A DNA stretch of 40,286 nucleotides from the IMG/VR virus record IMGVR_UViG_2541047822_000001, positions 1 to 40,286 of that record. One strand, written 5' to 3'. Position 1 is the stretch's first letter. Each line of letters begins with the position of its first letter. Made by a program: the position numbers and the translations under genes. This document shows positions 17,683 through 17,742 of this stretch, piece by piece. The notes beneath the pieces are model-generated. The model did no database searches. It was not told the origin of the DNA and saw only the letters and a program-made list of their open reading frames with translations. The DNA is from a virus (taxonomy: Duplodnaviria > Heunggongvirae > Uroviricota > Caudoviricetes).

Positions 17683-17742
17683 GGGGCGGGTCAAATCCCT
17701 GTGACCTGACGTCTTCCGGACTGCCCGCCCCATCGTTTTTTT
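17683..17742 (+). terminator. stem-loop with T7 tract upstream of terminase
   Basis: Perfect 8-bp GGGGCGGG (17683..17690) / CCCGCCCC (17724..17731) stem, then CATCG and TTTTTTT (17736..17742). Could be a terminator and/or part of the packaging (cos) region. Confidence 0.4.

Follow-up and report, generated by a model that had tools for sequence, protein, structure and literature searches.

A probable cos site of the SfI/SfV/phiP27 packaging type between the HNH endonuclease and small terminase genes of a thrW-integrated prophage

The region from 17678 to 17765 of the window, by which is meant the whole 40,286 nt stretch of DNA analysed here, is very probably the cos site of a prophage integrated at thrW, with an HK97-type head module and a packaging system of the SfI/SfV/phiP27 type; this assignment is drawn from sequence comparison with relatives whose ends are mapped or annotated. 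As the cos sites of SfI, SfII, SfIV, SfV and phiP27, along with the HK97 layout, have already been published, the element is one that is already known. A preliminary description of this DNA had singled out a strong stem–loop with a T tract just ahead of the terminase genes, and suggested that it might belong to the packaging signal, either 'as well as' or 'instead of' acting as a transcription terminator. The packaging-signal half of that suggestion is borne out, with the 3′ arm of the stem falling inside the cohesive end of SfI and aligning with both the annotated cos-site of phiP27 and the right genome end of HK97. With regard to the terminator half, 'instead of' fits better than 'as well as'.

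Genomic setting of the element

The element lies, as originally claimed, between the HNH gene and the small terminase gene, where the open reading frame map and Pfam assignments leave a gap of 125 nt. The genes concerned are as follows.

17306..17656, + strand: HNH endonuclease gene, a packaging accessory nuclease with an HK97 gp74-type role (Pfam PF01844, E = 1e-16)
17782..18267, + strand: small terminase subunit (TerS), P27 family (Pfam PF05119 Terminase_4, E = 6e-21)
18281..20014, + strand: large terminase subunit (TerL), ATPase and nuclease (Pfam PF03354 and PF20441)

An HNH reading frame identical to that of the window is annotated by PGAP as HNH endonuclease WP_024188390.1, whilst TerS is 96-98% identical to the TerS proteins of SfI/SfV-type phages, its ATG at 17782 agreeing with both the SfI and the PGAP annotation. 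Downstream of TerL are found a portal and an HK97-type prohead protease. The element is thus located between the HNH gene and terS-terL, with the HK97-type genes for portal, protease and capsid further downstream.

A tRNA-Thr(CGT) gene at 1369-1444, which is thrW beside proA, borders the prophage on its integrase side; this attachment site is common to SfI, SfII, SfIV, SfV and SfX. E. coli AF46 (NZ_OZ546993.1) carries a prophage that is ~98% identical to the window over most of the window's length and that possesses a contractile-tail module with a Mu-like baseplate. An AT-rich segment (16600-17300), with a GC content of 29-40% vs ~56% in its flanks, separates the lysis genes from the HNH gene; it harbours a minus-strand reading frame for a hypothetical protein of 112 aa (16810-17148) and abuts the ATT start of the HNH gene. 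It looks like a moron-type insertion.

As a description of the sequence itself, the earlier account of the stem, loop and T residues is accurate. The 5′ arm GGGGCGGG (17683-17690) and the 3′ arm CCCGCCCC (17724-17731) form a perfect stem of 8 bp that is entirely G/C, the loop between them is 33 nt in length (17691-17723), and a T7 tract occupies 17736-17742, with ATCG separating it from the 3′ arm. Stem and T tract are unusual as a sequence pattern, because their counts exceed those expected from first-order Markov simulations: the window contains two inverted repeats of all-G/C 8-mers whose loop does not exceed 40 nt, vs an expected 0.18, and one inverted repeat that has six or more T no further than 14 nt past it, vs an expected 0.06. 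The sole other all-G/C 8-mer inverted repeat, GGGGCGCGG-AAC-CGCGCCCC at 23305-23326, has no clear T tract and sits directly after a TAA (~23295-23297) that is taken, from its position, as the end of the major capsid gene; it may form a stem–loop that attenuates transcription or stabilises mRNA. A search of 17000-18400 against Rfam, with E up to 10, returned noise matches only. The T-arm-like sequence GGGTCAAATCCC was considered as part of a tRNA and rejected, with ARAGORN finding only one tRNA in the window, thrW at 1369-1444.

The cohesive end and the predicted cut

Alignment to phages with mapped or annotated ends, and to more distant relatives, divides the region into the following features.

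17678..17697, + strand: G-box GGGGAGGGGCGGGTCAAATC, a cos subsite upstream of the cut that includes the 5′ arm (conserved in 81 relatives and HK97)
17691..17721, + strand: spacer from the G-box core to the cohesive end, making up most of the loop (low column conservation, only 1-nt indels)
17722..17731, + strand: cosN, with the 10-nt cohesive end TGCCCGCCCC (SfI run-off 10-mer, SfI record ends, phiP27 cos-site, HK97 end)
17736..17742, + strand: T7 tract, +5 to +11 from the cut, the upstream A/T flank of the conserved block (alignment of relatives)
17737..17765, + strand: conserved block TTTTTTATACCCGCGAAAAATGAAATTTA, +6 to +34, a candidate cosB-like TerS site

The experimentally determined end of a close relative, SfI, falls at the aligned position. 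When run-off reads of SfI virion DNA were set against the prophage, both lacked the same 10 nt, and this gap defines the cohesive end as 5′-TGCCCGCCCC-3′ (PMC3636060). The SfI record, which is linearised with cos last, ends at the base aligned to 17731 (…GGACTGCCCGCCCC) and restarts at 17732 (GTCGTTTTTTTATACCCGCG…), whilst the phiP27 record carries a misc_feature, 'cos-site' CGCCCGCCCC, that aligns onto 17722-17731. The 3′ arm of the inverted repeat (17724-17731) is contained entirely within this decamer. A comparison with the cos regions of HK97-like phages, which had been proposed in the preliminary description, leads to the same base: the HK97 genome end aligns at 17731, reading …TGAC-CGCCGCCAAA (GAC plus 10 nt), and its counterpart in the window, GGAC-TGCCCGCCCC, is at the identical aligned position. 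In the record of Burkholderia phage vB_SR1, the TerS of which is ~51% identical, the break is 2 nt upstream of the aligned 10-mer. The flanks of the terminus are likewise of the kind seen in these phages, with the G-box situated 41 nt before it and a conserved block of A/T-GC-A/T make-up after it.

The polarity of the overhangs is deduced from the gap observed for SfI together with the overhangs of HK97. Because the templates of the run-off reads are the recessed strands, a 10-nt gap in both reads points to 3′ overhangs. HK97 itself has 10-nt 3′ overhangs, and its HNH protein, gp74, stimulates cleavage at cos (PMC11331095, PMC9410871, PMC13595911). For the window phage, we infer a top-strand nick after 17731 and a bottom-strand nick between 17721 and 17722, which would leave 10-nt 3′ overhangs. 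In lytic growth TerS and TerL, aided by the HNH endonuclease, would thus nick concatemeric DNA at these two positions (top strand after 17731; bottom strand 17721/17722), and the product would be a 3′ cohesive end of 10 nt, TGCCCGCCCC.

The hairpin in relatives, and its possible roles

Conservation of the stem was assessed in 80 loci of different species, gathered by TerS similarity from 98% down to ~50% identity and spanning Enterobacterales, Pseudomonas and Burkholderiales, to which were added the phages phiP27, a Pseudomonas phage, Moraxella Mcat30 and two Klebsiella phages. This yielded a set of 81 distinct cos regions, the alignment of which is almost gap-free, and in which stem pairing is not preferentially kept: 66.9% of cells are paired, vs 68.0% when partners are shuffled, with 470/500 shuffles equalling or exceeding the observed value. 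Sliding the registers by 1-2 columns leaves 64-65% paired, and RNAalifold, run on the same 81 sequences, predicts 0 base pairs. Duplex energies follow the same pattern, with -19.68 kcal/mol for a sequence's own arms vs -19.42 kcal/mol with the 3′ arm of another sequence (permutation p = 0.14), and -19.38 kcal/mol for the 5′ arm against a reversed, non-complementary 3′ arm. Since own arms pair no better than swapped or reversed ones, the complementarity is compositional. It is perfect in the SfV/phiP27 subgroup, and a perfect 8-bp stem is present in 8/81 relatives, the modal perfect stem being 5 bp. The structural part of the stem–loop proposal consequently does not hold, given a stem that is neither conserved nor covarying and a T tract whose register follows the block downstream of it. 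Judged from these alignments, the hairpin is a by-product of separately conserved G-rich and C-rich DNA boxes, the complementarity of which has been enhanced by chance.

These data bear directly on the idea of a Rho-independent terminator, possibly acting alongside cos, at which transcription of the lysis/HNH unit would stop, or which would keep transcripts in the lysogen from running on into the head genes; we regard this as quite improbable. Such a terminator need not obstruct late transcription, as Q-modified RNA polymerase would read through it, and read-through late in infection is possible because the near-identical AF46 prophage encodes the antiterminator Q. The appeal of the idea lies in the perfect 8-bp G/C stem, which can be extended past a 1-nt bulge by an A-U and a G-C pair that leave only a G before the U7; the tract starts 4 nt past the perfect stem, or 1 nt past the bulged 2-bp extension. 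In addition, the RNA minimum free energy on the + strand is -29.5 kcal/mol. That value is, however, ordinary for so G+C-rich a composition (z = -1.1), and the fold that attains it requires three internal loops. Nor is this the compact, short-loop, G+C-rich hairpin of a consensus terminator: the loop of 33 nt is too long for a simple terminator scan, which makes no call here. In 32/81 relatives a T run of at least 5 is no more than 2 nt away from the final paired base, but stricter terminator geometry is seen in only 7/81, and many relatives, phiP27 and Moraxella Mcat30 among them, have the run 5-10 nt away from the C-rich arm. Across the predicted folds of all 81 sequences the distance from T run to C-rich arm ranges from 0 to 17 nt, with a T run of at least 5 present in 71/81 irrespective of where the hairpin falls; what is invariant is the register of the run relative to CCGCGAAA, a motif considered below. 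There is likewise no maintenance of the hairpin by conservation or compensatory change in the 81 relatives. A terminator role for the element would hence be incidental at most, and a measurable added effect of this kind within the subgroup of the window phage is hardly to be expected. A terminator on the minus strand was also considered, the RNA fold there having z = -3.1, and was rejected for want of a U tract after the fold on that strand.

The inverted repeat might instead matter as DNA, either as a cruciform or hairpin that the HNH nuclease or TerL would recognise, or as a pair of symmetric protein sites; in the latter form, two inverted copies of a recognition sequence would position two nuclease subunits. 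All relatives do possess a G-rich box on the top strand upstream and a C-rich box at the cut, arranged with approximate two-fold symmetry at a fixed spacing of ~41 bp, and the DNA fold of the element (-13.1 kcal/mol) has z = -2.0. Set against this, a sequence's own 3′ arm is paired no better than that of others or a reversed one, the full stem of 8 bp is confined to 8/81 relatives with 5 bp as the mode, and the arms of HK97 pair poorly. Cruciform extrusion is, furthermore, unfavourable with a loop of 33 nt. We consider a structural role of this sort highly improbable, and retain the reading of the region as a cos site composed of individually conserved boxes.

Conserved boxes around the cut

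The most upstream of these, the G-box, has the consensus GGGGAGGGG[C/A]GGGTC[A/G]AA, and takes the form GGGGGGGGATCAAATC in HK97. From the T of its TCAAATC to the terminus there are exactly 41 nt in HK97, SfI and phiP27, for which ends are mapped or annotated, and by alignment the same is true of the window. In the wider family, the spacing between the G-box and the downstream block varies by ~1 nt only, and the intervening spacer is nearly constant in length whilst being variable in sequence. By analogy with lambda, the G-box probably has a cosQ-like role, either positioning the terminal cut or triggering it when the motor arrives, since, lying upstream of the cut, it is among the last DNA to be packaged by the motor, as is the case for lambda cosQ. 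A more specific proposal, which we hold tentatively, is that the G-box is a distinct cos subsite, read by the TerL/HNH nuclease pair and not by TerS, that sets the position of the end-of-packaging cut in the manner of cosQ. The G-box is partly complementary to the cohesive end, and on such a reading this would be a side effect or else serve as a weak cue to symmetry. As far as our search of the literature reached, no description of the G-box was found.

At the cut itself the relatives conform to AC-[T/C]GCC-GCC, with the AC present in 75/81 sequences. Beyond it, CCGCGAAA is invariant (81/81), and its flanks are at least 90% conserved even though TerS diverges to ~50% identity. The consensus of the downstream block in these relatives is T4-7-A-[T/C]-A-CCCGCGAAA-[A/T][A/T]T-AAATTTA, and the core four residues of the T tract, found in 78-81 of 81 relatives, keep a fixed distance from CCGCGAAA. 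The T tract accordingly belongs to a nearly invariant block, TTTTTAYACCCGCGAAA, downstream of the cut. In the register of the window, T7 covers +5 to +11, CCCGCG +15 to +20, and A5 +21 to +25.

This arrangement recalls the TerS-binding site of HK97, the minimal form of which extends from +15 to +29 (CTAACCCGATTTTTT) and consists of a GC core and an A-tract; there, Arg128 of TerS reads a C:G pair at +21, and the neighbouring A-tract, which acts through DNA shape, is indispensable for binding (PMC11331095). The block TTTTTAYACCCGCGAAAWWT, from +5 to +26, is the most likely candidate for the TerS recognition site in the window phage, given that both its position and its make-up, a GC core beside an A/T tract, match the HK97 site. 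The likeness is one of position and not of homology, as the two TerS families have no detectable sequence similarity: BLASTP found none between the P27-family TerS and HK97 TerS (gp1). A profile search of the PDB with the P27-family TerS gave no match, and a single-sequence structure model of it reached a pLDDT of 42.8, too low for fold comparison.

Two further observations concern the surroundings of these boxes. Some 20 bp upstream of the G-box, several relatives (e.g. loci L020, L031, L001 and L071) carry a palindrome, TGA[G/T]AAT-N-ATT[C/A]TCA, that resembles a Fur box of 7-1-7 type; it is exact in L020 (TGATAATCATTATCA), and a half-site, AAATGAGAA, is also present in HK97. In its strict form the palindrome occurs in 17/81 cos regions vs 0.7% of control segments. 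It was considered as a part of cos and discounted, being strict in only those 17/81 and degenerate in the window (~17655-17676). Separately, in Vibrio phage H2 (KY658673.3, 535-901; TerS ~51% identical) the end of the HNH gene is separated from terS by 6 nt, and this HNH-terS interval contains neither a G-box nor the CCGCGAAA block, so that the cos of this phage must lie elsewhere or differ.

Comparison with known cos sites

The closest counterparts of the element are those of the Shigella flexneri serotype-converting phages SfI, SfII, SfIV and SfV, which are 95-97% identical to the window over the HNH-cos-terS region; the phage SfI is 98.5% identical. Several E. coli and Salmonella phages show the same 95-97% identity in this region, and a related segment is present in ~1,200/5,426 complete E. 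coli genomes. The four Shigella phages and the window have the identical 10-nt cohesive end TGCCCGCCCC, the order HNH-cos-terS-terL, and integration at thrW beside proA. Relative to SfI there is 1 mismatch in the 120 nt that precede the cut and 1 in the 70 nt that follow it. The window departs from this group in being an E. coli-type prophage, ~98% identical to the one in AF46, in the ATT start of its HNH gene, which adjoins a different AT-rich insert upstream, and in an 8-nt insertion at the 3′ end of terS. Furthermore, the cos of the window is assigned by homology, whereas the ends of SfI have been mapped experimentally.

The cos-site of the Stx2e phage phiP27 (AJ298298, 21806-21815) similarly comes with a G-box, GGGGAGGGGCGGGTCAAATCCC, and an 8-bp inverted repeat, and its 10-mer differs from that of the window in the first base only (C instead of T). 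The distance from TCAAATC to the end is again 41 nt, and the two phages have in common the TerS family that is named after P27. The phiP27 site differs in the sequence of its spacer, in a T5 that begins 7 nt after the stem, and in its downstream block, ACACCCGCGAAATTAAAAAT.

HK97 presents the same layout. Its cos displays a G-box with TCAAATC, 41 nt from there to the terminus, and a C-rich end of GAC plus 10 nt, followed downstream of the cut by an A/T-rich region and then a CCCG core with an A/T tract; the HNH gene is directly upstream of cos and terS directly downstream, as in the window (PMC11331095; PMC9410871). Unlike the window, HK97 has arms that form no good hairpin, a cohesive end of CGCCGCCAAA, and a TerS, gp1, without detectable sequence similarity to the P27 family, whilst the TerS site reads CTAACCCGATTTTTT in HK97 as against ATACCCGCGAAAAAT for the candidate in the window.

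A similar logic is evident in phage lambda. The lambda cos is composed of cosQ, an upstream element that the motor reaches last, cosN, where the DNA is nicked, and cosB, a downstream TerS-binding region beside terS. The resemblance of the window to lambda is one of function and not of membership, as lambda has 12-nt 5′ overhangs, no HNH protein, and an unrelated TerS (Nu1) with its own sites (R sites and an IHF site). In the window TerS is of the Terminase_4 family instead of the Nu1 type, and the ends of its relatives are seen as a 10-nt gap and not as 12-nt 5′ ends.

Condition of the packaging genes

Two alterations in the neighbouring genes raise the question of whether the site is still in use. 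The HNH reading frame starts with ATT (17306-17308), without an ATG, GTG or TTG, whereas the start codon is ATG in SfI, SfV and 38/38 relatives. In addition, compared with the AF46 prophage, there are 8 extra nt at ~18258-18266 (TTTCTGA-CAATCTGA-AAATC), as a result of which TerS ends in …NPFLTI and comprises 161 aa instead of the 164-aa form, the longer one being that annotated for SfI. The same insertion removes the coupling of terS to terL through an ATGA overlap, the ATG of TerL being at 18281. Owing to the ATT start and the terS insertion, the packaging module may be impaired and the site unused in its host, in which case the prophage would be defective and its cos-homologous sequence a relic.

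We view such a relic as rather unlikely. The cos region is intact with respect to SfI, and 130 nt of it are identical in 12 independent loci. An ATT placed 7 nt after AGGAGG (17294-17299), as it is here, can start translation. Other E. coli genomes have the ATT allele as well, and in these PGAP annotates the protein as WP_024188390.1. As for the altered TerS C-terminus, the TerS of IMG/VR locus L091 is 100% identical across all 161 residues matched.

Implications

With the cut placed after 17731, the termini of this E. coli prophage family are set, which is of use in defining virion genomes, in designing cos-plasmid and transduction tools, and in spotting satellites that borrow cos. The element also carries a caution, in that G/C inverted repeats at cos sites can be miscalled as terminators. 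Beyond annotation, the finding is of little significance. What is mildly new is comparative, namely the fixed 41-nt spacing from G-box to cut, which is common to HK97 despite a TerS with no detectable relation, and the nearly invariant TTTTTAYACCCGCGAAA block. Together, this spacing and the TTTTTAYACCCGCGAAA block could inform the choice of mutations to make in the in vitro packaging system of HK97.
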